NCBI RefSeq assembly: GCF_050175855.1
Contig: NZ_JBFXIO010000001.1
Span: forward strand, 3,471-67,470
DNA length: 64,000 nucleotides
Reading direction: 5' to 3'
Origin: Piscinibacter sp.
GTDB lineage: Bacteria > Pseudomonadota > Gammaproteobacteria > Burkholderiales > Burkholderiaceae_C
The notes under the pieces: generated by a model
Told to the model about the DNA's origin: nothing
The model's input: the letters and a program-made list of their open reading frames with translations, nothing else
The model's database searches: none
In this document: positions 6,368 through 58,300 of the stretch, piece after piece
Numbering within the stretch: position 1 is the stretch's first letter
How the letters are laid out: every line of letters starts with the position of its first letter
Program-made: the position numbers and the translations under genes

Positions 6368-7741
6368 ATGGATGCCGAGTCTTTCGATGCCATCGTCGTT
6401 GGCGCCGGTCAGGCGGGCCCGGCTATCGCGGCACGCTGCAGCCGCGAGGGCCTGAAGACCGCCGTGATCGAACGCCACCACTTCGGCGGCACCTGCGTCA
6501 ACGTGGGCTGCGTGCCGACGAAGACGCTGGTGGCCAGCGCGCGCGCCGTCCGGCTTGCGCAGCGCGGCGCCGACTTCGGCTTCGACATCACCGGCCTGCG
6601 CGTCGACATGGCCCGCGTGATGGCCCGCAAGGACGCGATCGTCGCGAAGTCGCGGGACGGCGTGGAGACCTGGATGCGCGGGCTGAAGGGCACGGACGTC
6701 ATCGTCGGCGATGCCCGGTTCGTCGGCCCGGCCACGCTCGAGGCAGCAGGGCGCCGATTGACCGCGCCGCGCATCTTCCTCAACGTCGGCGGACGCGCGG
6801 TACGGCCCGCGTTGCCCGGCATCGAGACGGTGCCGACCCTGGACAACGTGTCGGTGATGCAGCTGGACTCCGTGCCGGAGCATCTCGTCGTTGTGGGCGG
6901 CAGCTACATCGGTCTGGAGTTTGCGCACCTGATGCGCCGCCTGGGTGCCGCCGTCACGGTGGTGGAGCGCTCCGCGCGCCTGCTTCCGCGGGAGGACCCC
7001 GACGTGTCCGACGGCATCCGTTCGATCCTGGAGGCCGAAGGCGTGCGCTTCGAACTGGGCGCTGAGTGCCTGTCGCTCGCCCGGGCGGGCGAGGGCATCG
7101 TCGTCGGCGCAGCCTGCGGTGGCGGTGACGGCATTCTCGGAAGCCACGTGCTGCTGGCCGTCGGCCGCCAGCCCAACACCGACGGGCTGGGCCTGGAACT
7201 GGCCGGCATCCGCACCGATGCGCGCGGGTACATCGAGGTCGACGACCAGTGTCGCACCAGCGCCGAAGGCGTCTGGGCCGTGGGCGACTGCAACGGACGC
7301 GGCGCATTCACGCACACCTCGTGGAACGACCACGAGATCGTGGTCGCGAACCTGTTCGATGGCGATCCACGCCGCATCGGCGACCGCATCCCCTGCTATG
7401 CACTCTTCATCGATCCGGCTCTGGGGCGCGTCGGCATGACCGAGACCGAAGCGCTGGCCAGTGGCAAGCGTGTGCTGCGCGCCAAGATGCCGATGCAGCG
7501 CGTGGGCCGAGCGCGCGAGGCGGGTGAAACCTCGGGCTTCATGAAGGTGCTGGTCGATGCCGACACGCAGCGCATCCTGGGCGCGGCCATCCTCGGGATG
7601 AACGGGGACGAGGTGGTGCACGGGCTGCTGGACATCATGGCGGCCGACCAGCCGTACACCGTGATCTCGCGGGCCGTGCACATCCACCCGACCGTGAGCG
7701 AACTGGTGCCGACCTTGCTGCAGCAATTGAAGCCGGTCTGA
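6368..7741 (+). CDS. Flavin disulfide oxidoreductase (MerA/RclA-like, no C-terminal Cys pair)
   Basis: GAGQAG FAD motif, [11 protein letters not shown] redox disulfide, GGSYIGLE, HIHPT. Confidence 0.88.
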   Translation: MDAESFDAIVVGAGQAGPAIAARCSREGLKTAVIERHHFGGTCVNVGCVPTKTLVASARAVRLAQRGADFGFDITGLRVDMARVMARKDAIVAKSRDGVETWMRGLKGTDVIVGDARFVGPATLEAAGRRLTAPRIFLNVGGRAVRPALPGIETVPTLDNVSVMQLDSVPEHLVVVGGSYIGLEFAHLMRRLGAAVTVVERSARLLPREDPDVSDGIRSILEAEGVRFELGAECLSLARAGEGIVVGAACGGGDGILGSHVLLAVGRQPNTDGLGLELAGIRTDARGYIEVDDQCRTSAEGVWAVGDCNGRGAFTHTSWNDHEIVVANLFDGDPRRIGDRIPCYALFIDPALGRVGMTETEALASGKRVLRAKMPMQRVGRAREAGETSGFMKVLVDADTQRILGAAILGMNGDEVVHGLLDIMAADQPYTVISRAVHIHPTVSELVPTLLQQLKPV

Positions 7742-34230: not shown

Positions 34231-34259
34231 TGTAAGAAAAGCGCGTCGGTCTGCGTCTG
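34231..34259 (+). promoter_or_regulatory. ECF-type promoter TGTAAG-N17-CGTCTG
   Basis: About 76 bp upstream of the 34336 gene. Confidence 0.68.
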
Positions 34260-41412: not shown

Positions 41413-43569
41413 TCAACCGCGCCGCCAGGCGTGAAAGCGCTCGACCCAGGCCAGCAGCGCCTGCGGCGCGTGTGCGCGCTTCCAGTTGCCGGCGGCGTAT
41501 TTGTTGGCCTCGGCCAGCGTCGGGTAGGTGTGGATCGTGCCGAGGATCTTGTTCAGGCCGATGCCGTGTTTCATCGCCAGCACGTACTCGGCGAGCAGAT
41601 CGCCGGCATGTTCGCCCGCGATCGTCACACCGAGGATGCGGTCCTTGCCCGGCACGGTCAGCACCTTGACGAAGCCGTGCGCCTCGCTGTCGGCGATGGC
41701 GCGGTCCAGATCGTCCAGGCCGTAGACCGTCACCTCGTACGGGATCTTCTTCTCCTTCGCCTCCAGCTCGTTCAGGCCGACCCGCGCCACCTCGGGTTCG
41801 ACAAAGGTCGCCCAGGGGATCACGCGGTAGTCGGCGCTGAACTTCTTGAGGGGGTCGAACAGCGCGTTGACGGCCGCGTACCAGGCCTGGTGCGCGGCAG
41901 TGTGGGTGAACTGGTAGGGCCCGGCCACGTCACCGGCGGCGTAGATGTTGGGGAAGTTGGTCTGCAGGTAGCCATTGACCTCGACGGTGCGCCCGGTGGT
42001 CACGCCCAGTTCCTCCAGGCCATAGCCCTTGAGGTTGGCCACACGCCCGACGGCCACGAGGATGGCATCGAAGGGAATCTGCTTCTCCTGACCGCCAGCC
42101 TCGACGACCAGCACCTTCTCGAGCCCGCCACCCTGCACCCGAAGCGCCTTGTGACCGGTCAGCACGGTGATGCCTTCGGCGCGAAAGCGGGCTGTGACCA
42201 GCTCCGACACTTCCGAGTCTTCGCGCACGAGGACGCGCGGCAGCATCTCGACCTGCGTCACGCGCGATCCCAGCCGCGCGAAGGTCTGCGTCAGTTCGCT
42301 GCCGATCGGGCCGCCACCCAGCACTACCAGGCGCCCCGGCCGCTGGCGCAGTTGCCAGACGTTGTCGGATGTGAGCAGCTCGGTCGGGCCGAGTTCAGCC
42401 ATGCCCGGAATTGGCGGCACGAAGGGCCGCGCCCCGGCCGCGATGACGATGGCGCGCGTGGTGAGGGTCTCGACACGGCCATCGCGGTGGGTAATCTCGA
42501 CCTCCCACGGCGACACGATGCGCGCCGTGCCCTGCGCCACGTCGACGCCCAGGCCGGTGTAGCGCTCGACCGAGTCGTGCGGCTCGATGTCCTTGATGAC
42601 CCGCTGCACCCGTTCCATCACTTCGCCGAAATCGAAGTCGGCGGTGGCGCCACGCATGCCGAATTCCTTCGCCCGCTGCACGTGGGAGAGGAACTTGGCA
42701 GATCGGATCAGCGCCTTGGACGGCACGCAGCCGGTGTTCAGGCAGTCGCCCCCTAGCGCGTGCTTCTCCACCAGCGTGACCTTGGCCTTGATGGCCGCCG
42801 CGATGTAGGCCGTGACCAGGCCGGCCGAGCCGCCGCCGATGACGATGAGGTTGCGGTCGAAGGACTTGGGCTTCTTGAAACGGGCGTAGATCCTTCTGGC
42901 CTTGAACATGTCGATGATCTTCTTGGCGACGAGCGGAAAGATACCCAGCAGCACCAGCGAGCCCAGCACGCCCGGCGAGACGATGCCGGACAGGGAGTCG
43001 ATGCGGGCCAGCTGCGTGCCGGCGTTGACGTAGACCAGCGTGCCGGCGAGCATGCCGAGCTGGCTGACCCAGTAGAAGGTCCAGGTGCGCAGCGTGGTCA
43101 CGCCCATCGCCAGGTTGATGACGAAGAAGGGCAGCACGGGCACCAGGCGCAGCGTGAACAGGTAGAAGCCGCCTTCCTTCGCGATGCCGGCGTTGAGGGC
43201 GGCCAGCCGGTCGCCGAAGCGCGACTGCACCCAGCTGCCGAGCAGCCAGCGTGCGGCCAGGAACGCGAGTGTGGCGCCGATCGAGGAGGCGAACGAGACG
43301 ATCAGCGTGCCCCAGCCCAGCCCGAACAGCGCGCCGGCGGCCAGCGTCATTACCGCGGCGCCGGGCAAGGACAGCGCCGCCACCGCCACGTAGCCGGTGA
43401 AGAACACCAGTCCAGCCAGCAGCGGCTGGCCCGCGCGCCAGGCCTGCAGATCGGCCTGGCTGCTCTTGATGGCGGCCAGGCTCAGGAACCGGCCGAGGTC
43501 CAGCCCGAAGAACAGCGCCAGCAGCAGCACCAGCCCCACCAGCAACCACCACCGCTTGTCCAGACGCAT
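41413..43569 (-). CDS. VTT/DedA membrane domain fused to a DLD/MerA-like flavin disulfide reductase
   Basis: LSLPGA...LFTLRLVP...GMLAGT; GGGSAG, GGDCLNTGCVPSK, HTYPTLAE. Confidence 0.9.
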   Translation of the reverse strand: MRLDKRWWLLVGLVLLLALFFGLDLGRFLSLAAIKSSQADLQAWRAGQPLLAGLVFFTGYVAVAALSLPGAAVMTLAAGALFGLGWGTLIVSFASSIGATLAFLAARWLLGSWVQSRFGDRLAALNAGIAKEGGFYLFTLRLVPVLPFFVINLAMGVTTLRTWTFYWVSQLGMLAGTLVYVNAGTQLARIDSLSGIVSPGVLGSLVLLGIFPLVAKKIIDMFKARRIYARFKKPKSFDRNLIVIGGGSAGLVTAYIAAAIKAKVTLVEKHALGGDCLNTGCVPSKALIRSAKFLSHVQRAKEFGMRGATADFDFGEVMERVQRVIKDIEPHDSVERYTGLGVDVAQGTARIVSPWEVEITHRDGRVETLTTRAIVIAAGARPFVPPIPGMAELGPTELLTSDNVWQLRQRPGRLVVLGGGPIGSELTQTFARLGSRVTQVEMLPRVLVREDSEVSELVTARFRAEGITVLTGHKALRVQGGGLEKVLVVEAGGQEKQIPFDAILVAVGRVANLKGYGLEELGVTTGRTVEVNGYLQTNFPNIYAAGDVAGPYQFTHTAAHQAWYAAVNALFDPLKKFSADYRVIPWATFVEPEVARVGLNELEAKEKKIPYEVTVYGLDDLDRAIADSEAHGFVKVLTVPGKDRILGVTIAGEHAGDLLAEYVLAMKHGIGLNKILGTIHTYPTLAEANKYAAGNWKRAHAPQALLAWVERFHAWRRG

Positions 43570-43616
43570 CTCGTTCTTTCTTGGTTCGTCGAGGCATGTG
43601 CGCCTTCGCTGCTTCA

Positions 43617-43645
43617 TAGACGCGCTGGCGGTACGGATCCTTACA
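43617..43645 (-). promoter_or_regulatory. ECF-type promoter TGTAAG-N17-CGTCTA
   Basis: Upstream of the VTT-reductase...HD-GYP operon; back-to-back with the site at 43656. Confidence 0.72.
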
Positions 43646-43655
43646 GACGCCGGGG

Positions 43656-43684
43656 TGTAAGCAATTCACGCCGGCGTTCGTCCA
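43656..43684 (+). promoter_or_regulatory. ECF-type promoter TGTAAG-N17-CGTCCA
   Basis: 26 bp upstream of the mtnP ATG. Confidence 0.7.
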
Positions 43685-43710: not shown

Positions 43711-44595
43711 ATGAACTCGACCCCCATCCATCCGCGCATCGGCATCTTCGGCGGCAGCGGCCTGTACCGCATGGAAGGGCTGACCGACGTTCGCGAGCAG
43801 GTCCTCGACACGCCTTTCGGAGCGCCGTCCGACGCATTCCTGCTCGGCCGGTTGGGAGGCGTGGACGTGGCTTTCCTGGCGCGACATGGCCGCAGCCACG
43901 GCTTGATCCCCAGCCAGATTCCGTTCCGCGCCAACGTCTATGCGATGAAGGCGCTGGGTGTGCAATATCTGCTGTCGGTCTCGGCCGTCGGCTCGATGCG
44001 CGAGGACATCGCGCCGCTGGACATGGTGCTGGTCGACCAGTTCATCGATCTCACGCGCAAGCGCGAAGGCAGCTTCTTCGGCGATGGCGCGGTGGCGCAC
44101 GTCTCGCTGGCCGATCCGGTGTGCGCCGTCCTGCGCGACGTGCTGGCCGCTTCGTTTGCGGATACGGGGCTGGCCGATGTGCGCCTGCACACGCAGGGCA
44201 CCTACGTCTGCATCGAAGGGCCGGCGTTCTCGACGCGTGCCGAATCGCGCTGGTACCGCAGCCTGGGCGCCGCGGTGATCGGCATGACCAACATGCCCGA
44301 GGCCCGCCTGGCCCGCGAGGCCGAGATGGCCTATGCCACGCTGGCGCTGGCCACCGACTGGGACTGCTGGCACCCGCACCAGGCCTGCGTCACCGCCGAG
44401 ATGGCGATCGCCAACCTGCAGGGCAATGCACAGCGTGCGCAGCAGGTGCTGGCCCATGCGGTGCGCCGCATTGCAGCCAACTGGCCGGTGTCGGCAGCGC
44501 ACAGCGCACTGGGCGCGGCGCTGGTGACGCCGCCGGCGGCCATGGCGGCCCCGGTCCGGGAGCGGCTGCACGCCTTGATCTCGCGCTTTCTGTGA
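43711..44595 (+). CDS. mtnP: S-methyl-5'-thioadenosine phosphorylase
   Basis: IGIFGGSGLY, FLARHG, RANVYA, EGPAFSTRAES, GMTNMPEA, TDWDCW; AGGAG RBS. Confidence 0.92.
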   Translation: MNSTPIHPRIGIFGGSGLYRMEGLTDVREQVLDTPFGAPSDAFLLGRLGGVDVAFLARHGRSHGLIPSQIPFRANVYAMKALGVQYLLSVSAVGSMREDIAPLDMVLVDQFIDLTRKREGSFFGDGAVAHVSLADPVCAVLRDVLAASFADTGLADVRLHTQGTYVCIEGPAFSTRAESRWYRSLGAAVIGMTNMPEARLAREAEMAYATLALATDWDCWHPHQACVTAEMAIANLQGNAQRAQQVLAHAVRRIAANWPVSAAHSALGAALVTPPAAMAAPVRERLHALISRFL

Positions 44596-44621: not shown

Positions 44622-44650
44622 TGTAAGACCTCGACGACCTGCCTCGTCTA
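44622..44650 (+). promoter_or_regulatory. ECF-type promoter TGTAAG-N17-CGTCTA
   Basis: 79 bp upstream of the DUF2282 precursor gene. Confidence 0.72.
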
Positions 44651-44729
44651 TTCGCCACGAAGGCCGTGCTCGGCACGGCGCTTCGGCCAGTCCCACCGCT
44701 AGGTCCATCCACTGTTTCAGGAGATTCCC

Positions 44730-45029
44730 ATGACCCAAACCACCCCCAAGTTGCCCGCGATCGCCCTGGCCCTGGCGCTGGGCGCCGCGTTCACGGCCTT
44801 GCCCGCCGCCGCACAGATGGCCGACAAGGACAAGTGTTTCGGCGTCGCCTTGAAGGGCAAGAACGACTGCAAGGCTGGTGCCGGCACCACCTGCGCTGGC
44901 ACGTCCAAGGTGGATCACCAAGGCAACGCCTGGTCGCTGGTCCCGAAGGGCACCTGCGAAAACACGGTCTCCAAGACCTCGCCCACAGGCTTCGGCCAAC
45001 TTGCCGAGTTCAAGGAAAAGAAGGCCTGA
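44730..45029 (+). CDS. bufA1: DUF2282 bufferin-type RiPP precursor
   Basis: Signal peptide followed by EKC-like [30 protein letters not shown] (4 Cys). Confidence 0.9.
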
Positions 45030-45065
45030 GCGGCGGACCCTGCCGAGCACCCCGAGCCGCCGCCC

Positions 45066-46004
45066 ATGTCTGCCGCTGATCAAGGCCTGCGCCACGCCAC
45101 AGTCGGCTCGCCGGCCGCGGGCGTGCGCGGCGGCGCGCCCGGCTTGCCGTGGCGCGCCGGCATTGGCCTGAAGCCGGAGCACTTCCGCGAGGTGCTGGCC
45201 ACGCGCCCGGACATCGGCTTCTTCGAGGTGCATGCCGAGAACTACATGGTCGACGGCGGGCCATTCCACCACTTTCTGGCGCGCGTGCGGGAACACTACG
45301 CGCTGTCTCTGCACGGCGTGGGCCTGTCGATCGGTGGCTCGGATCCGCTCGACGAATCGCATCTCGACCGGCTGGCCGCATTGATCGAGCGCTACCAGCC
45401 GGCTTCATTCTCCGAGCACCTGGCGTGGTCCAGCCACGGCGAGGTGTTCTACAACGACCTGCTGCCGGTGCCCTACGACCGGCAGACGCTGGCCCGCGTG
45501 TGCGAACACATCGACCGCGTGCAGGAGCGGCTCGGCCTGCGCATGCTGCTCGAGAACCCGTCGACCTACCTCGAGTTCGAGGCCTCGACGATGAGCGAGA
45601 CCGCGTTCCTGCGCGAGGTGATGAAGCGCACCGGTTGCGGGCTGCTGCTGGACGTCAACAACGTGCACGTGTCGTGCACGAACCACGGGCGCGACGCGAT
45701 GGCCTACCTGCGCGAGCTTCCTTTGGGAGCAGTGGGCGAAGTTCATCTGGCCGGTTTTGCGCGCGACCAGGACGCCGCCGGTGCGCCGCTGCTGATCGAC
45801 AGCCATGGCAGCCCGGTGGACGAGGCCGTCTGGGGCCTCTTTGCCCACGTCATCGCGCAACTCGGCGCTGTGCCGACGCTGCTCGAACGCGACAACGACG
45901 TGCCTGCCCTGCAGACGCTCCTGGCCGAAGCCGGCCGCGCCGAGGCGACGATGGGTGCGCGGGCCGAACCGCGGCGCTGTGGCCTCTACTGGGGCGGCGC
46001 ATGA
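45066..46004 (+). CDS. bufB: MNIO (DUF692) multinuclear non-heme iron oxidase
   Basis: [60 protein letters not shown]. Confidence 0.93.
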
Positions 46005-46801
46005 CAGGCGCGGCGACGCTCCCCGGCAGCCAGCGCGACTTCGCAGCTGCGCTGCTCGACCCGCAGCGCGCTGTTCCGCCGGGACTGCGCACCTGGAACG
46101 GCTCGGACCCGGCAGCGCGCCTGGCCGTGTACCGCAACAACGTCGTCAGCTCGCTGGTCGATGCGCTGGCCGACACCTTTCCGGTGGTCCAGCGACTGGT
46201 GGGCGTTGAGTTCTTCCGCGCCATGGCAGTCCTGTTCGTGCGTGAGTCGCCACCACGCTCGCAGGTGCTGGCGCACTACGGGCGCGACTTCCCAGCCTTC
46301 GTTGCCGCGTTCGAGCCGGCTCGAGGGCTGCCCTACCTGGCCGACGTGGCGCGGCTGGAGGTGGCGCGCGTGCAGGCCTATCACGCGGCCGATACGGAAT
46401 TGATCTCCGACGAGATGGTGAGCTTGGCGCTGGCCAGCGGCGAGCGCATGGGCGAGCTGCGTTTGGTGCTGCATCCCTCGGTCCATACGCTCGCGTCGCC
46501 TCATGCCGTCGTGACCTTGTGGGCGGCGCATCAGGTGGACGGTGACGACGTTGCGCAGGTCGACGTCGACGCGCCGGAGAGCGCCCTGATCCTTCGCGTG
46601 GGCCTCGAGGTGCTGGTCCTGCCTTCGGCCCTCGGGACGGTCTGTTTCGTCGAGGCCGTCCGTGAGGGCCAGAACCTGGGTGACGCTGCGGCGCGCGCCA
46701 TCACGGCCGCGCCCGGCTTCGATCTCAGCGGCACCTTGACCCAATTGCTGGCGCACGGCGCGCTGAGTGCTATCCATCTTCCACCGAGGTTGTCCTCATG
46801 A
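46001..46801 (+). CDS. DUF2063 MNIO partner protein
   Basis: [32 protein letters not shown]. Confidence 0.88.
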
Positions 46802-47346
46802 CCACGTCCGCATCGTCCACCGCCCGTGCCGGCCATCGCGCCGCCTCATCCGGCGCTTCCTCCATGGCGCGACTGATTGATGCGGCCATCGGTGTGTTCG
46901 AGCGCATCCCGCACTCGCTGATCGCGTTCATCGCGCGCTTCTCGATCGCGGCGGTCTTCTGGAATTCAGGGCAGACCAAGGTCCAGGGCTTCGTGGTCAA
47001 CCTGGTCTCCGGCGAGTTCAAGCTCGGCTGGCCGAGTCTGTCGGATTCGGCGCTGGCGCTGTTCCAGGACGAATACAAGCTGCCGTTCATTCCGCCCGAG
47101 TTCGCGGCGCCGATGGCGGCCACGGCCGAGCATCTGTTCCCGCTGTTGATCCTGATCGGCCTGGGGACGCGCTTCTCGGCCCTGGCCCTTCTGGGCATGA
47201 CCCTGGTGATCCAGCTCTTCGTCTACCCCGGCGCCTACGCGACGCACGGCACCTGGGCCGCGGTGCTCTTGGTTCTCATCGCTCGCGGGCCAGGCATGTT
47301 GTCGGTGGATCACTGGCTCGCGTCGCGCCGGGCGGCGATCCGATGA
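46798..47346 (+). CDS. DoxX family membrane protein
   Basis: FWNSGQTK, LFQDEY, EHLFPLL...GLGTR, IQLFVYP, GPGMLSVD. Confidence 0.88.
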   Translation: MTTSASSTARAGHRAASSGASSMARLIDAAIGVFERIPHSLIAFIARFSIAAVFWNSGQTKVQGFVVNLVSGEFKLGWPSLSDSALALFQDEYKLPFIPPEFAAPMAATAEHLFPLLILIGLGTRFSALALLGMTLVIQLFVYPGAYATHGTWAAVLLVLIARGPGMLSVDHWLASRRAAIR

Positions 47347-47511
47347 TGGCCGCCGGCCGACCACTTATCAGCCGTCGCTCGCCCGCCTGGTGCGCGACGC
47401 CACCCCATGTCGAGTCGCGCGCACGCGCCCCTCAACATGTCCGCACCGTTGCACGGGCTCGGTGAGGTCCCTTTCCTTCCCCTCGACTTGATCCATACAC
47501 AGGAGATCTCC

Positions 47512-47790
47512 ATGAGCAAGCTTTCATCCCACCTGACCAAGGCCTTGGCCTCGGCCGTGGTGACCGCCGCCGCACTCGGCGGCAACGTCATGGCCGCCAC
47601 CTGCGCGGGCGCCAAGTGCGGCCCGAAGAAGATGGCGGCCAAGTGCGGCGCCTGCAGCGCCAAGGGTGCTGCCTGCGCGGCCAGCGGTGCCAAACACAAG
47701 ATGAAGGCCAAGGCGAAATGCGGCGCGAAGTGTGGCGCCAAGTGCGGTGCCACCAAGGCCAAGTGCGGCGCCTGCGGCGCCAAGAAGTGA
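47512..47790 (+). CDS. Secreted Cys/Lys/Ala-rich peptide with six KCG repeats (92 aa, 10 Cys)
   Basis: CAGGAG RBS; leader LASAVVTAAALGGNVMA; core AKCGAKCGAKCGATKAKCGACGAKK. Confidence 0.82.
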   Translation: MSKLSSHLTKALASAVVTAAALGGNVMAATCAGAKCGPKKMAAKCGACSAKGAACAASGAKHKMKAKAKCGAKCGAKCGATKAKCGACGAKK

Positions 47791-47824
47791 CCCGTCGAAC
47801 CCCACAACCTGAAGGAGACACGAC

Positions 47825-48022
47825 ATGAACTCACTTTCATCGACCCTCGCCCGCACACTGGCCTCCGCCGTCGTGACCGCCGCCGCCCTCGGCGGCTGCG
47901 CCATGATGTGCGGCGCCAAGAAGTGCGGCGCGGGTACTTCCGCGCAAGCCTGCGGTGCGTGCAAAGGTAAGTGCGGCGCCTGCAAGGGCAAGTGCGGTGC
48001 TTGCGGCGCGAAGAAGAAGTAG
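47825..48022 (+). CDS. Paralogous Cys/Lys-rich peptide (65 aa, 9 Cys)
   Basis: AAGGAG RBS; same leader LASAVVTAAALGG then C; core CGACKGKCGACKGKCGACGAKKK. Confidence 0.82.
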   Translation: MNSLSSTLARTLASAVVTAAALGGCAMMCGAKKCGAGTSAQACGACKGKCGACKGKCGACGAKKK

Positions 48023-48100
48023 GAGCATCGCCACCAGTTGCCTCGGCTCCCGACCTGTTGTCGGAGCTGAGGCCGTATCGGATTTCACCTGCACCCCGGG

Positions 48101-48808
48101 ATGAGTGCCCATCCATTGCTGCGCCGTCGTTGGCGGCAGGCGTCCGACGAAGTGTTTGCCTCGGACCTGAGGCAGGCACGCGACAGCGTGGCCGCGTTCA
48201 GCCAAACCACGGAGGCCTCGGGTTCCCTGCTGCAGAGCTGGATCGAAGGGCGGCCCGTCGTCGAGTTCGAGCACTATCCGCCCGACGATGTGGTCGACTT
48301 CCGCAACGGCTCGCAGTTCTACTACCACGCCCACCGCGACGGCGACCAGGAACACGGCCACCTGCACCTGTTCTGGCACGCTACCGCGTCGGGGCGACGC
48401 CGATACCTGCGTCCCGGCAATCCACGATGGGTTCGCACGGCGCCGACGCATCTGTTCGCGATCTCGCTCGATGCCCGGGGGCTGCCGGTGGGTCTGTTCA
48501 CCGTCAATCGCTGGGTCACCGACGGTCACTGGTTCGATGCCGCGACGACGCTCTCGTTCGTCGACCGCTTTGCACTGGATGCTGTGGAAAGCCATGCAGC
48601 TTCGTGCCGCTGGCTCACCAACTTCGTGAGGCTCTACCGGCCCCTGATCGAAGCGATCCTGTTGAAGCGCGATGCTCGCCTGGCCCGACGCGCATCGCTC
48701 GAAGACGCATTGATCGACCACCGCCTGGAGGTGCTGAGTCTTCAGCCCATCGACTGGGCGGCCGACCTGGATGCGCTCGAAGCCGAGGCCGCACGGCGCG
48801 GCTTGTGA
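48101..48808 (+). CDS. DUF6969-like His-rich hypothetical protein
   Basis: SQFYYHAH...EHGHLHLF and PTHLFAISLDARGLPVGLFTVNRWVT; family name from memory of the motif. Confidence 0.72.
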   Translation: MSAHPLLRRRWRQASDEVFASDLRQARDSVAAFSQTTEASGSLLQSWIEGRPVVEFEHYPPDDVVDFRNGSQFYYHAHRDGDQEHGHLHLFWHATASGRRRYLRPGNPRWVRTAPTHLFAISLDARGLPVGLFTVNRWVTDGHWFDAATTLSFVDRFALDAVESHAASCRWLTNFVRLYRPLIEAILLKRDARLARRASLEDALIDHRLEVLSLQPIDWAADLDALEAEAARRGL

Positions 48809-48817
48809 CGTGGTGAG

Positions 48818-49453
48818 CTACCAGCGCAGCAGCAATGGACCCAGCAGGGCGCCCAGGGCTGCGGGGAGCAGCACCCCTGCCGTGTACCAGACCAGCACGA
48901 ACAGCGGCGACAACTCTGGGCAGTACAGCGCATACCCCAGCGCACCCAAGCCGCCGGCGAACAGGCCCGCGGCGAAGCCTGCCCATCGTGGCCTGGTCGG
49001 CGCCAGGCCGCGCAGCGCCCACATGGCAGCGGCGAGTGCCGGCACCGAGAGTGACGCCACGCGCCAGGGGCAGGAGGTCCAGGACCGCCCGAGCAGCAGA
49101 TCGAGGCGCTGTGTCTCACCGGCTTGCGTCCACACCGTGACCGCCAGCAACGCCATCGCCAGCACCACCCCGACGACGGCCCAGAGCGCCCGTCGCCACG
49201 GTGTGCCCGGACGGGCGATGCGGTCGACGAACCAGGCAGCGGACAGGATCAGCGCGACGACGTACCCAAGCTTCACTGCCAGCGCCACACCCATGTCCGT
49301 GAGGCTGGCATTCAAACCCAGTGCACCAATTGCACCGGCGATGCTTCCGGCAGCCCCCAGGCTTGCGGCCATCGCGACGCGGCGTTCCACCGCATGGCGG
49401 GGTGCCGGCCCGGCCTGGCGTGCCAGCAGCTCGACGAGTTGCTCGGTCTTCAT
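48818..49453 (-). CDS. nrsF: NrsF/DUF1109 membrane anti-sigma factor
   Basis: MKTEQLVELL, SCPWRV, RGLAPTRP, YALYCPE. Confidence 0.9.
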   Translation of the reverse strand: MKTEQLVELLARQAGPAPRHAVERRVAMAASLGAAGSIAGAIGALGLNASLTDMGVALAVKLGYVVALILSAAWFVDRIARPGTPWRRALWAVVGVVLAMALLAVTVWTQAGETQRLDLLLGRSWTSCPWRVASLSVPALAAAMWALRGLAPTRPRWAGFAAGLFAGGLGALGYALYCPELSPLFVLVWYTAGVLLPAALGALLGPLLLRW

Positions 49454-49998
49454 GGCCTGCCCCGGATCAAGCCGGCCAGGCGCTTGAGGCCACGATGGAC
49501 ATTGACCTTGATGGCCGATTCCGACACACCCGCGCGCCGCGCTGCGTCGGCGACCGAGAGGCCCTCGAGCTTGGTGTCGACGATGGCCTGCCGCTGCGCC
49601 GCTGTCAGGCTGCCCAGAAGCTGTTCCAGGTCGTGCTGGACGCCGGCTTCTTCATGGATCGCCGGATGCAGGTCATCCGGCAGTTCGTCGAAGGACTCGA
49701 ACAGACCTTCGCTGCGCCCACGGCGCCGCCACAGATCGACCAGCTTGTGGCGCGCGATGCCATACACCCAGGCCGTCACCGGAACGCTGGTGTCGTAGGT
49801 GCCGCGCTGCAGGTGCAGCGCCAGCAGGGTTTCCTGCACGAGATCCTCCACGTCAGGGGACAGGCCGCCCATGCGGCGGGCGAAGTAGCCGCGCAGCCGG
49901 TCGGCGATCAATGCCAGGGCTCGTCGATACGCGGCTTCGTCGCCCGCATGGGCGTCCAACCAGATCGGCCGCAGTTGATCTTCGAAGTCGTTGCGCAA
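49450..49998 (-). CDS. sigF: ECF sigma factor (SigF/ECF16-type)
   Basis: GDEAAYR, VEDLVQETLLALH, WVYGIARHKLVD, KVNVHRGLKRL; ATGA-coupled to nrsF; TTG start. Confidence 0.85.
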   Translation of the reverse strand: MRNDFEDQLRPIWLDAHAGDEAAYRRALALIADRLRGYFARRMGGLSPDVEDLVQETLLALHLQRGTYDTSVPVTAWVYGIARHKLVDLWRRRGRSEGLFESFDELPDDLHPAIHEEAGVQHDLEQLLGSLTAAQRQAIVDTKLEGLSVADAARRAGVSESAIKVNVHRGLKRLAGLIRGRP

Positions 49999-50012: not shown

Positions 50013-50038
50013 TTCGTCGGGCGCGGCGATCCGGTTAC
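50013..50038 (-). promoter_or_regulatory. SigF-type promoter GTAACC-N16-CGAA (sigF-nrsF autoregulation)
   Basis: Reverse strand reads GTAACC GGATCGCCGCGCCCGA CGAA. Confidence 0.78.
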
Positions 50039-50070
50039 ACGGACAGCCGAAAAAAAGTTCTGGCGTCGCT

Positions 50071-50096
50071 GTAACCGAAGCGCGATGTCAAACGAA
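50071..50096 (+). promoter_or_regulatory. SigF-type promoter GTAACC-N16-CGAA (trx-ccdA operon)
   Basis: GTAACC GAAGCGCGATGTCAAA CGAA. Confidence 0.78.
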
Positions 50097-50170
50097 CTTG
50101 CCCTTCGTCGCGCTGGCGTTTCGGCAGCGCCATCTCCCACCCACCCCTCACCTGCTTGAAAGGCCGAACC

Positions 50171-50551
50171 ATGAAGCTCGCCCGTCTCATTGTCGCCGCC
50201 GCCCTCGTCGGCAGCGCCGCGCTCGCCCACGCGCTCGATATCAAGCCCTATTCGGCAGACGCGCTTGCCAACGCGGAGAAGGCGGGCCAGCCCGTCGCGT
50301 TGCACTTCCGGGCCGACTGGTGCCCGACCTGCCGTGCTCAGGACAAGGCACTGCAATCCTTGAAGGCGGAGAAGGGCCTGGACATCACCGTACTGTCGGT
50401 CAACTACGACACCGAGAAGGACATGAAGCGCCGCTTCAAGATCAGTTCGCAATCGACCCTTGTCGTGCTGAAGGGTGACAAGGAATCGGCCCGACTCGTC
50501 GGCGACACGTCCTCGTTGAACATCATGATGGCTCTGAAGTCGGCACTCTGA
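50171..50551 (+). CDS. Periplasmic thioredoxin-family protein
   Basis: Signal peptide; HFRADWCPTC and QSTLVV. Confidence 0.88.
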   Translation: MKLARLIVAAALVGSAALAHALDIKPYSADALANAEKAGQPVALHFRADWCPTCRAQDKALQSLKAEKGLDITVLSVNYDTEKDMKRRFKISSQSTLVVLKGDKESARLVGDTSSLNIMMALKSAL

Positions 50552-50563
50552 TCGTCGCCGGGC

Positions 50564-51298
50564 ATGTCGATCGCACTCTCGCTGCCGCAACTGGGGCTGA
50601 GCCTGGCGGCGGGCGGATTGACCACGCTGTCGCCTTGCGTGTTCCCCTTGCTGCCGCTGGTGCTGGGCGGCGCGCTACAGGGCAACCGCTTCGCGCCGGT
50701 GGCGATGGGCGCCGGCATGATCGCCTCCTTCGCAGCCATCGGGATGGTGCTCGGTGCACTCGGCCCGTCCTTGGGCATCGACGCCGACACCGTGCGCACC
50801 GCCGGGGCGGCGATGCTGATCGCCTTCGCGCTAGTGATGCTGGTGCCAGCCCTGGGCGAACGCTTCACGCGATGGATGTTGCCGATCGCCAGCACGGCGA
50901 ACGCCGCGTCGGCCAAGCTCGATGGCGGATCCGTCGTCGGCGCGCTGCTGCTGGGCGGCGTGCTGGGGCTGGTCTGGAGCCCGTGCTCGGGGCCGCTGCT
51001 CGGGTCGGCCTTGACGCTGGTGGCCAGCGAAGGCGGAGTCGCGCGCGGCGGGCTCGTGCTGGGCATTTTTGGGTTGGGCGCGGCAATCCCGCTGGTCGCC
51101 GTGGCCTATGCGTCGCGCAGAGGTTTCGTTGCCGTGCGTGACTGGGTGATGGCACGCATCGAACGCGTGCGCCATGTCTTCGCCGTGCTGCTGGGCGCCA
51201 TGGGCGTGGCCATCCTGACCGGTGGCGACAAGTGGCTGGAGGCGCGCGTGCTGCAGTGGTTGCCGGACGCCTGGGTCAACCTGACGGTTGGCATCTGA
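50564..51298 (+). CDS. ccdA: CcdA/DsbD transmembrane electron transporter
   Basis: LSPCVFPLLP and VWSPCSGPLL. Confidence 0.9.
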   Translation: MSIALSLPQLGLSLAAGGLTTLSPCVFPLLPLVLGGALQGNRFAPVAMGAGMIASFAAIGMVLGALGPSLGIDADTVRTAGAAMLIAFALVMLVPALGERFTRWMLPIASTANAASAKLDGGSVVGALLLGGVLGLVWSPCSGPLLGSALTLVASEGGVARGGLVLGIFGLGAAIPLVAVAYASRRGFVAVRDWVMARIERVRHVFAVLLGAMGVAILTGGDKWLEARVLQWLPDAWVNLTVGI

Positions 51299-57086: not shown

Positions 57087-58085
57087 TCAGGCGCCGCAGC
57101 TCGGCGCAGAGGCGGTCGTGGCCTCGAGGGCGCCGCCGCAGCTGGAACCCTGGCCGGCGGTGCAGCCGAAGCAGTGGTCGGCCACACGGATGGGGCGGTC
57201 GTCCAAGGCTGCAGCCGTGATGTCGGAGATGTGCAGACGGGGCTTGCCCGCCTGCTGGATCGGCAGGCCCAGCTGCTGGTTGAAGTCGCAGTCGTACAGG
57301 TAACCCTGCCAGTCCACGCTCACGAGGCTCCGGCACATCACCTGTTCGAGGTTGTCGTCCCGGTGTGCGCTGCGCAGCAGGTCCATGTAGCTGTTGAACT
57401 GGCCCTTGGACACCAGCATCGAGCCGAATCGCTGGATCGGCATGTTGGCCAGCGTGAACAGCTGGTTGAAGACGACACCGAAGTGCGCCGCCAGATGCCG
57501 CTTGTAGTCGCGCTCCAGCGCCTCCTGCGGCGGAGGCAGGCTGGCGCCCTGCGGGTTGTAGACGAGGTTCAGCGTGAGGGCGCTGCCCGGCTGGCCGTAG
57601 CCGAGGGCGTTGAGCCGTTGCAGGCCCCGAATGCTCGCGTCGAAGGTGCCCTTGCCGCGCTGGCGGTCGACGTTGTCTTCCAGATAGCAGGGCATCGATG
57701 CCACCACCTCGACGCCATGCGCGGCCAGGAACTCCGCCAGGCCTTCCTGGCCGGGTTCCTCCAGGATGGTCAGGTTGCAGCGGTCGATGACCCGCACCCC
57801 TCGGGCCCGGGCGGCCACGACCAGGTCGCGGAAGTGGCGGTTGAGCTCAGGCGCGCCACCGGTCAGATCCAGGGTGCGCACGTCCGGGCTGCCGGCCAGG
57901 AAGGCGATCACCGCATCGATGGTGTCGCGCGACATCTCCTCGGTGCGGTTCGGGCCGGCGTTGACGTGGCAGTGTTGGCAGCTCTGGTTGCAGCGGTAGC
58001 CCAGGTTGATCTGCAGGGTGTCGACCGTGCGGCGACGCAGCGCCGGAAAGTCGGTGCGGAGGAGAAGGGGGAGGGTGGCGTGCAT
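57087..58085 (-). CDS. arsS: ArsS-like radical SAM / Cys-rich protein (DUF3641 C-terminus)
   Basis: QINLGYRCNQSCQHCHV (CxxxCxxC), DLTGGAPE, ASMPCY, YDCDFNQ, HCFGCTAGQGSSCGG. Confidence 0.9.
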   Translation of the reverse strand: MHATLPLLLRTDFPALRRRTVDTLQINLGYRCNQSCQHCHVNAGPNRTEEMSRDTIDAVIAFLAGSPDVRTLDLTGGAPELNRHFRDLVVAARARGVRVIDRCNLTILEEPGQEGLAEFLAAHGVEVVASMPCYLEDNVDRQRGKGTFDASIRGLQRLNALGYGQPGSALTLNLVYNPQGASLPPPQEALERDYKRHLAAHFGVVFNQLFTLANMPIQRFGSMLVSKGQFNSYMDLLRSAHRDDNLEQVMCRSLVSVDWQGYLYDCDFNQQLGLPIQQAGKPRLHISDITAAALDDRPIRVADHCFGCTAGQGSSCGGALEATTASAPSCGA

Positions 58086-58111
58086 GTCGATCCGTGGTGG
58101 CTTCCCCTTCC

Positions 58112-58139
58112 TAGACGGTCGCCGCGGCGATTCCTTACA
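58112..58139 (-). promoter_or_regulatory. ECF-type promoter TGTAAG-N16-CGTCTA
   Basis: 26 bp upstream of the arsS ATG. Confidence 0.68.
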
Positions 58140-58156
58140 GCTGGTGGAACCGTCGG

Positions 58157-58185
58157 CGTAAGAAAAATGAGGCATCGACCGTCTG
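58157..58185 (+). promoter_or_regulatory. ECF-type promoter CGTAAG-N17-CGTCTG
   Basis: Back-to-back with the site at 58112; upstream of the operon ending in the second ECF/anti-sigma pair. Confidence 0.62.
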
Positions 58186-58300
58186 AGTTTCTTGTCGAGC
58201 CGAATACCTCGCATCTGCGTGGCGTTCGGACCGCCGGACCTTGAGTTCTCGGCTGCCGGAGCCGAAAACGCCGATATCAGGAAAACCCCGAGGATTCCCC

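Follow-up and report, generated by a model that had tools for sequence, protein, structure and literature searches.

The 64,000-nucleotide stretch of Piscinibacter sp. DNA under study, here called the window, carries at positions 44622 to 48808 of its forward strand a bufferin operon, two genes for short Cys-repeat peptides (named KCG1 and KCG2) and a gene for a protein of the DUF6969 family, and the relation between these elements is the subject of the present analysis. The region has a G+C content of ~68%, which leaves many overlapping frames open, and the gene row was picked out by Pfam and NCBIfam family scans. The first gene, bufA1 (44730-45029, +), encodes a bufferin precursor of the DUF2282 type, which carries a signal peptide and has four Cys residues, at positions 36, 47, 55 and 76, the PF10048 match (82 bits) spanning residues 33-80. 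It is followed by bufB (45066-46004, +), encoding the MNIO bufferin maturase, by bufC (46001-46801, +; PF09836, 96.5 bits), encoding the DUF2063 (PME1) partner and having its start overlapping the bufB stop, and by a gene for a DoxX-family membrane protein (46798-47346, +; PF07681, 61 bits), with bufB, bufC and doxX overlapping or abutting one another. All four genes match their families, and the stretch 44730-47346 is a complete member of the Bufferin 1 (Buf1) cluster, composed of a DUF2282 precursor, a BufB-type MNIO, DUF2063 and DoxX, in agreement with the preliminary description of this DNA, which had recognized a canonical bufA1-MNIO-DUF2063-DoxX set.

The assignment of the MNIO was analyzed at the level of models and of single residues. 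BufB scores 388.6 bits against NF050167 (cut-off 310) and only 238 bits against the HvfB model (cut-off 360). In MNIOs of the Lys-Cys family, the FonB residues Arg15, Arg16 and Phe250 are conserved, Phe250 adjoining the catalytic Asp249 (PMC13097082). Alignment with FonB and NgoB places Lys-Pro at the Arg15/Arg16 positions of the window BufB and Asn at that of Phe250, and both BufB paralogues of the same genome have Lys-Pro (or Lys-Asp) and Asn at these positions. Since the equivalents of Arg15, Arg16 and Phe250 are missing, the window MNIO looks to be of the DUF2282 type. The cluster as a whole shares with the Bufferin 1 biosynthetic gene cluster of Caulobacter (CC3254-3257; PMC11626156, PMC3511200) its four genes, their order, an adjacent sigF-nrsF pair and a promoter of the extracytoplasmic function (ECF) type. 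It differs in that the promoter is a TGTAAG...CGTC variant rather than GTAACC...CGAA, and in that the operon seems to continue into three extra genes, which are absent from any described bufferin cluster.

The first of these extra genes is separated from doxX by a spacer of 165 base pairs (47347-47511, +) with neither promoter motif nor terminator. KCG1 (47512-47790, +) encodes an exported-looking Lys/Cys-repeat peptide of 92 residues with 10 Cys and AKCG repeats, and KCG2 (47825-48022, +) one of 65 residues with 9 Cys; the two are paralogues, as inferred from their 46% identity (E 2e-11), and bear no relation to BufA1. Pfam and NCBIfam scans assigned no family to either, nor to representative peptides of the NPCAAK, GCCAAKK and NPCGP types considered below. 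Ribosome-binding sites of the AGGAG type precede both genes. Comparison of codons with the syntenic orthologous metagenome scaffold L129 yielded 19 synonymous and 4 non-synonymous differences for KCG1 and 24 synonymous and 1 non-synonymous for KCG2, where 25 of the 26 base changes fall at third positions. KCG1 and KCG2 are thus real coding genes under purifying selection, and the earlier statement that two KCG-repeat genes lie on the same strand 165 base pairs after doxX holds, with exact coordinates and both genes genuine. An alternative KCG1 start at an upstream ATG (47407) was discarded, as 47512 is favoured by its ribosome-binding site, by alignment with the orthologue and by the 92-residue gene call in L129. 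Inspection of the sequences by eye revealed hydrophobic N-termini with Ala-rich or lipobox ends. The AALGG/C sequence closing the putative KCG2 signal peptide (47825-47905) is lipobox-like in its ALGG/C part and is kept in L129 and in a further relative, L130; from this KCG2 may be a lipoprotein and KCG1 soluble. The DUF6969 gene (48101-48808, +; PF22308, 200 bits) starts 78 base pairs after the KCG2 stop.

We have analyzed the distribution of these peptides in other genomes and observed that it follows that of DUF6969. DUF6969 is present in 21 out of 301 genomes from the order to which the window belongs, and in nearly all of the 21 a small signal-peptide protein with Cys repeats (NPCAAK, NPCGP or KCGAK/KCAPK) is encoded 5' of it on the same strand. 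When the scan was extended to 185,579 species genomes, DUF6969 was encountered at no fewer than 577 loci of alpha-, beta- and gammaproteobacteria, including Marinobacter, Undibacterium, Hahella, Accumulibacter, Hyphomicrobium and Halomonas, with the same pairing and one further repeat type, GCCAAKK. For quantitation a strict filter for Cys-repeat open reading frames (ORFs) was used, which required 30 residues to contain no fewer than 4 Cys and 3 Lys and no more than 1 Arg; a looser version that also accepted Ser, Thr and Arg was discarded, since it gave 1768 false ORFs for this genome, which is rich in G+C. Using the strict filter, exactly 3 ORFs are found in the whole 5.01-Mb genome to which the window belongs, all of them adjoining its 2 DUF6969 genes. 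Within 2.5 kb of DUF6969 a same-strand Cys-repeat ORF is present at 70 of 100 loci (58 upstream, 13 downstream), and 576 kb of farther flanks contain only 2. Also, the DUF6969 tree splits perfectly according to the repeat type of the neighbouring peptide, with 3 changes, the minimum possible, versus a mean of 19.2 upon shuffling, which shows long co-inheritance of peptide and DUF6969.

The relation to MNIO genes is of a different kind. Within the fetched flanks of 6-9 kb, bufB was found at 1 of the 20 same-order loci and at 2 of the 80 loci of the wider scan; outside the lineage of the window it occurs in such flanks only at L032 and L072, and at L095 bufC and doxX lie ~5-6 kb away. No PF05114 (MNIO) match was obtained in 10 of 19 DUF6969 genomes, all at least 94% complete, and one of the MNIO-free genomes (G275) holds a KC-type peptide locus, L046. 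The assembly of the window itself has 3 MNIO clusters and 2 DUF6969 genes. The second cluster, on contig C60, is a colinear copy with bufA1BC-doxX, one KCG gene, DUF6969, nrsF and trx-ccdA; the third, on contig C36, has sigF-nrsF and lacks both KCG peptide and DUF6969. The layout doxX-KCG-DUF6969 is restricted to close relatives, namely C60, L129 (DUF6969 77% identical, full synteny) and L049 (57%), and at L130 (70% identical) KCG1-KCG2-DUF6969-Trx-CcdA forms an operon of its own, about 4-5 kb from the buf cluster of that genome. These results show that the peptides and DUF6969 are inherited together across Proteobacteria and that their pairing is independent of MNIO.

With respect to the copy on C60 (locus L006, 2089-9118), its proteins are 75-91% identical to those of the window and it has one KCG gene as compared to two. 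No sigF is present between nrsF and trx, NrsF is only 52% identical to that of the window, and motifs of the SigF type face both ways in the nrsF-trx spacer. The contig could be explained by paralogy or by the presence of another strain in the bin, for which the estimated contamination is 4.3%.

Downstream of DUF6969, on the minus strand and converging on the buf-KCG-DUF6969 row, lie nrsF (48818-49453, -; PF06532, 199 bits), for the anti-sigma-F factor, and a gene for a SigF-type ECF sigma factor (49450-49998, -; Pfam/NCBIfam scans). Beyond them an exported thioredoxin (50156-50551) and a CcdA/DsbD_TM protein (50564-51298) make up a periplasmic reducing pair (50156-51298, +), and pairs of this kind are found within 4 kb of DUF6969 at 7 of the 10 KC-type loci. 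The region between the two units (50013-50096) contains divergent canonical SigF promoters, GTAACC-N16-CGAA, for sigF-nrsF (50013-50039, -) and trx-ccdA (50070-50096, +), and these are the only such sites in the window. The motif upstream of bufA1 is of another type, TGTAAGA-N16-CGTC (44622-44648, +), ~82 nucleotides 5' of the gene, so that the distinction drawn previously between a TGTAAG-type bufA1 promoter and GTAACC-type SigF sites nearby is borne out. L129 has the identical motif, C60 a conserved one and L049 the variant GTAAGG-N16-CGAC. With 4 occurrences in the window (34231, 43656 and 44622 on the plus strand, 43645 on the minus strand) versus 0.05 in shuffled sequences, TGTAAG-N17-CGTC is a real recurring motif of the ECF type. 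Its sites in the window suggest a small ECF regulon that is separate from the SigF sites of the GTAACC/CGAA type; in the whole genome there are 11. In Caulobacter, the buf operons are driven by SigF, which answers Cr and Cd (PMC3511200).

The spacer between doxX and KCG1 was searched for ECF-type motifs of either type, for sigma-70-like sites and for terminators, and none was found, terminator-like sites being at background level; its predicted RNA fold (z = -0.27) contains no stable structure. The equivalent spacers of C60, L129 and L049 also have no ECF motif. A distinct scenario is found where the module stands alone: at L130 a GTAAGC-N16-CGAC motif lies ~100 nucleotides 5' of KCG1, and the stand-alone KC-type loci L130, L087 and L112 each have GTAA[CG]-N17-CGAC at 70-110 nucleotides 5' of the first peptide gene. 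The canonical GTAACC-N16-CGAA precedes the module at 7 of 80 loci, as compared to ~0.1 expected. Read-through from doxX into the KCG genes is thus plausible from the sequence. Indeed, as the module has no ECF motif of its own, no terminator precedes it and the stand-alone copy of a relative has a TGTAAG-type promoter, it is likely that the module shares regulation with the buf operon, co-transcription itself being what the sequence would predict. The simplest reading is that the module would be a member of a SigF-type stress regulon which in this lineage has docked behind the buf operon and would be read from the buf promoter. In L129 a GTAAGC-N16-CGAC sequence (6706-6731) is also present at the 3' end of KCG1, 38 nucleotides 5' of KCG2; it is not conserved in the window and may reflect chance or an internal promoter.

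Taken together, we consider with a probability of about 0.7 that two systems lie side by side in the window, a Buf1 operon and an autonomous module of Cys-repeat peptides and DUF6969, which share their regulation and do not share their maturation. The module has been placed directly behind doxX, and before nrsF-sigF and trx-ccdA, in a narrow Comamonadaceae-like lineage, and its transcription would start at the TGTAAG-type ECF promoter of bufA1 and reach it by read-through. DUF6969, which would act in the cytoplasm through a His/Asp site of metal type, would serve as a maturase or a holdase for the peptides prior to their export. KCG1 would then be exported via Sec, and KCG2 probably as a lipoprotein. 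Once in the periplasm, the peptides would constitute dense arrays of Lys-activated thiols able to bind or quench soft metals, oxyanions or reactive chlorine species, and the SigF-driven Trx-CcdA pair would keep them reduced.

The functions proposed for the peptides and for DUF6969 come from their context. A periplasmic thiol buffer acting on metals, oxyanions or oxidants is favoured because of the neighbours, namely the copper-bufferin operon, the sigma/anti-sigma genes and the periplasmic reducing pair, and because of the precedent of MrpX. In Azospira suillum, MrpX is a periplasmic Met-rich peptide under SigF/NrsF control that is sacrificially oxidised and re-reduced by YedY(MsrP) (PMC4436054), and homologues of the sigma pair answer Cr and Cd (PMC3511200) or reactive chlorine (PMC4436054). 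The KCG peptides resemble MrpX as low-complexity, SigF/NrsF-linked proteins with a signal peptide (putative in the KCG case) that are rich in one oxidisable residue, and as having encoded alongside a periplasmic system which would re-reduce them. The differences are that the KCG peptides have Cys and Lys instead of Met, that their candidate reductant is Trx-CcdA and not a molybdoenzyme, and that they have in DUF6969 an obligate cytoplasmic partner, which MrpX lacks.

A number of observations weigh against this interpretation. The KCG genes lie directly behind doxX in the window, C60, L129 and L049, as would be expected of the gene for an MNIO substrate, and in vitro FonBC, whose MNIO is of the Lys-Cys type, can modify the test peptide AKCGA-AKCGA once (PMC13097082). 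With the filters used, ~20-30% of the DUF6969 loci have no Cys-repeat ORF, some of these being at contig ends, and congruence with the tree can reflect co-inheritance and not physical interaction. Finally, the neighbours of DUF6969 in the NPC-type clade (YeeE/Sulf_transp, SoxA-like haem) point to sulfur chemistry and not to the buffering of metals or oxidants.

The part assigned to DUF6969 was examined at the family and structural levels. A search of 1.84 billion representatives puts 1185 clusters (50% identity) in the family at E<=0.001, and homologues ~70% identical to the window protein bear Polaromonas and Rhodoferax names. In 62 aligned sequences H58, P60, D63, D66, Q72, H76, H78, G86, H87, H89, N136, W138, R190 and D191 are invariant. 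The window protein, in which no signal peptide is visible from the sequence, has the invariant HYP..D..D / YYHAH / EHGHxH cluster, whose His and Asp residues are H58, D63, D66, H76, H78, H87 and H89. An AlphaFold2 model was obtained with confidence (predicted local distance difference test, pLDDT, of 92.6; predicted template-modelling score, pTM, of 0.90). A Foldseek search of this model against the PDB gave nothing significant (best E 0.8, TM <=0.18), as did a search of the PDB with the sequence profile (best E 0.27); no second family emerged from a Pfam scan of the 62 aligned members (E<=1), and a full-text search of ~8.4 million papers and preprints for DUF6969 and the repeat strings returned no paper.

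A further proposal, which we regard as tentative and rather less probable than the side-by-side arrangement itself, is that KCG1/KCG2 and DUF6969 represent a new, MNIO-independent class of Sec-exported modified Cys peptides, in which DUF6969, a protein with a multi-His site of metal type and no solved structural relative, would modify the repeat Cys in the cytoplasm before export, in parallel to BufB acting on BufA1. If this is the case, one ECF-controlled transcription unit of the window contains two Cys-tailoring systems that are unrelated to each other, and some of the Lys-Cys precursors counted in DUF2282 captophorin clusters are substrates of a second enzyme. The new element at this locus is the physical and probable regulatory fusion of a Cys-peptide/DUF6969 module with a bufferin operon, for which the hypothesis of a common MNIO was tested with a negative outcome. 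The locus is also a handy test bed, as one short stretch combines a known Cys-modifying system and a Cys-peptide system with their sigma/anti-sigma pair and with a pair of periplasmic reductants.

In other taxa the surroundings of DUF6969 are more varied. At a number of loci (L051, L053, L054, L056, L066, L071, L072, L079, L084, L092, L093, L105, L118 and L120) an exported protein of 200-330 residues is encoded 5' of DUF6969, with a SoxA/TsdA-type cytochrome c domain (CxxCH) between NPCAAK-type Cys repeats on both sides, and at L127 and L064 a cytochrome P460 domain is combined with the same repeats. At two alphaproteobacterial loci (L064, 6579-7433; L096, 6567-7451) DUF6969 is followed by an exported protein of the FGE-sulfatase family (PF03781, 129 bits), a possible second tailoring enzyme, and after that by proteins with CNPCNPCAAKK repeats. 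In the NPC-type clade (L029-L038, L067, L094, L097, L118, L127) an extended gene row is conserved, in which DUF6969 is followed in order by a 162-residue periplasmic protein matching no Pfam family, DUF302, Sulf_transp (YeeE/YedE) and DUF3179.

Among the alternatives, the one that fares best proposes that the peptides carry periplasmic sulfane sulfur, as persulfide or polysulfide, in the manner of SoxY arms, with DUF6969 as a sulfur/cysteine enzyme and the adjacency to buf incidental. SoxYZ, acting with SoxAX/TsdA, has in common with the KCG peptides a Cys on a flexible Gly/Ala-rich arm, and the fusion of repeats to SoxA/TsdA-type and P460 haem domains in other taxa, as well as the extension of the module in the NPC-type clade by the 162-residue protein, DUF302, Sulf_transp and DUF3179, are in line with such a function. 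However, the KCG peptides chain many Cys and have no SoxY fold, the window has no sox genes, and the KC-type clade to which it belongs has none of these sulfur-transport neighbours, but Trx-CcdA, nrsF-sigF and buf instead, with ECF stress promoters 5' of the module. For the window we thus hold the sulfur-carrier role to be improbable; for the family as a whole, the haem fusions and the sulfur-type operon genes of the NPC-type clade keep it a serious rival.

Slightly less probable still is that BufB/BufC matures both BufA1 and the KCG peptides, each KCG Cys being converted to 5-thiooxazole, so that two classes of copper-binding captophorins would result from one MNIO. This possibility had been raised in the preliminary description, where the KCG repeats were said to recall the EGKCG repeats of HvfA substrates. 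The position of the genes on the same strand, 165 base pairs after doxX with no intervening terminator or promoter motif, is what such a model expects, and so is the conservation of this layout in C60, L129 and L049. The Lys-Cys-Gly motif also resembles the 5-mers of captophorins. AKCGA has been treated as a naturally occurring 5-mer repeat and a Lys-Cys repeat ORF was counted in 21 of 15,077 DUF2282 clusters (Table S2 of PMC13097082), and gene clusters with tandem precursor genes exist (PMC12452194). In view of the FonBC result, cross-reaction of the MNIO with the KCG peptides is chemically conceivable by analogy.

Against this, KCG1 and KCG2 give no match to the NCBIfam HvfA-type repeat models (NF050137, NF050188) even at E<=10, whereas a synthetic EGKCG control scores 91.8 bits with NF050137 (KCGExKCG_twice), and the proposed resemblance to HvfA substrates does not hold at this level. 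The window BufB is BufB-type and lacks the residues of Lys-Cys MNIOs, the peptides vary together with DUF6969 and occur in MNIO-free genomes, including that with the KC-type locus L046, and those of L130 are encoded in a separate operon. As the HvfA model fails, the BufB residues differ and the peptides co-occur with DUF6969 and not with MNIO, maturation of two precursor classes by one MNIO is not supported. Compared to the Lys-Cys captophorin precursors of the HvfA, oxazolin and fontiphorin types (PMC11252979, PMC13097082), the KCG peptides are likewise small, exported-looking and built on repeated Lys-Cys-Gly, next to MNIO-PME1-DoxX genes. They differ from them in that the repeats are without the Glu-Gly part, no HvfA hidden Markov model matches, the neighbouring MNIO is DUF2282-type, the partner across taxa is DUF6969 and half of the genomes bearing the module are MNIO-free.

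The Lys-Cys ORFs in DUF2282 clusters were picked by proximity and Cys content only (PMC13097082). MNIO/captophorin mining that assigns precursors in this way can mislabel, as the AKCG-repeat ORFs studied here show, and Lys-Cys precursors published as parts of DUF2282 clusters may have been assigned wrongly. In the other survey (PMC12452194) genes were included only if located within 10 base pairs of a known cluster gene, and under that rule the KCG genes would fall outside it.

The remaining alternative, that the KCG ORFs are chance open frames and not genes, for which the ~68% G+C with its many overlapping ORFs and the low-complexity peptide sequences would speak, is refuted by the synonymous/non-synonymous ratios and third-position bias, by the good ribosome-binding sites, by the rarity of such ORFs (3 in 5 Mb, every one beside DUF6969) and by signal-peptide homologues in dozens of taxa, down to 39% G+C, so that we attribute practically no probability to it.

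Some further features of the window can be noted. Three TGTAAG-N17-CGTC motifs are found in addition to that of bufA1, at 34231-34257 (+), 43656-43682 (+) and 43645-43619 (-), the last two being divergent and located between a VTT/Pyr_redox gene (41413-43617, -) and a PNP_UDP_1/MTAP-like gene that ends at 44595 (+). A radical-SAM/DUF3641 (ArsS-like) gene is present at ~57087-58214 (-), and the same family is encoded less than 5 kb from DUF6969 at 7 other loci.

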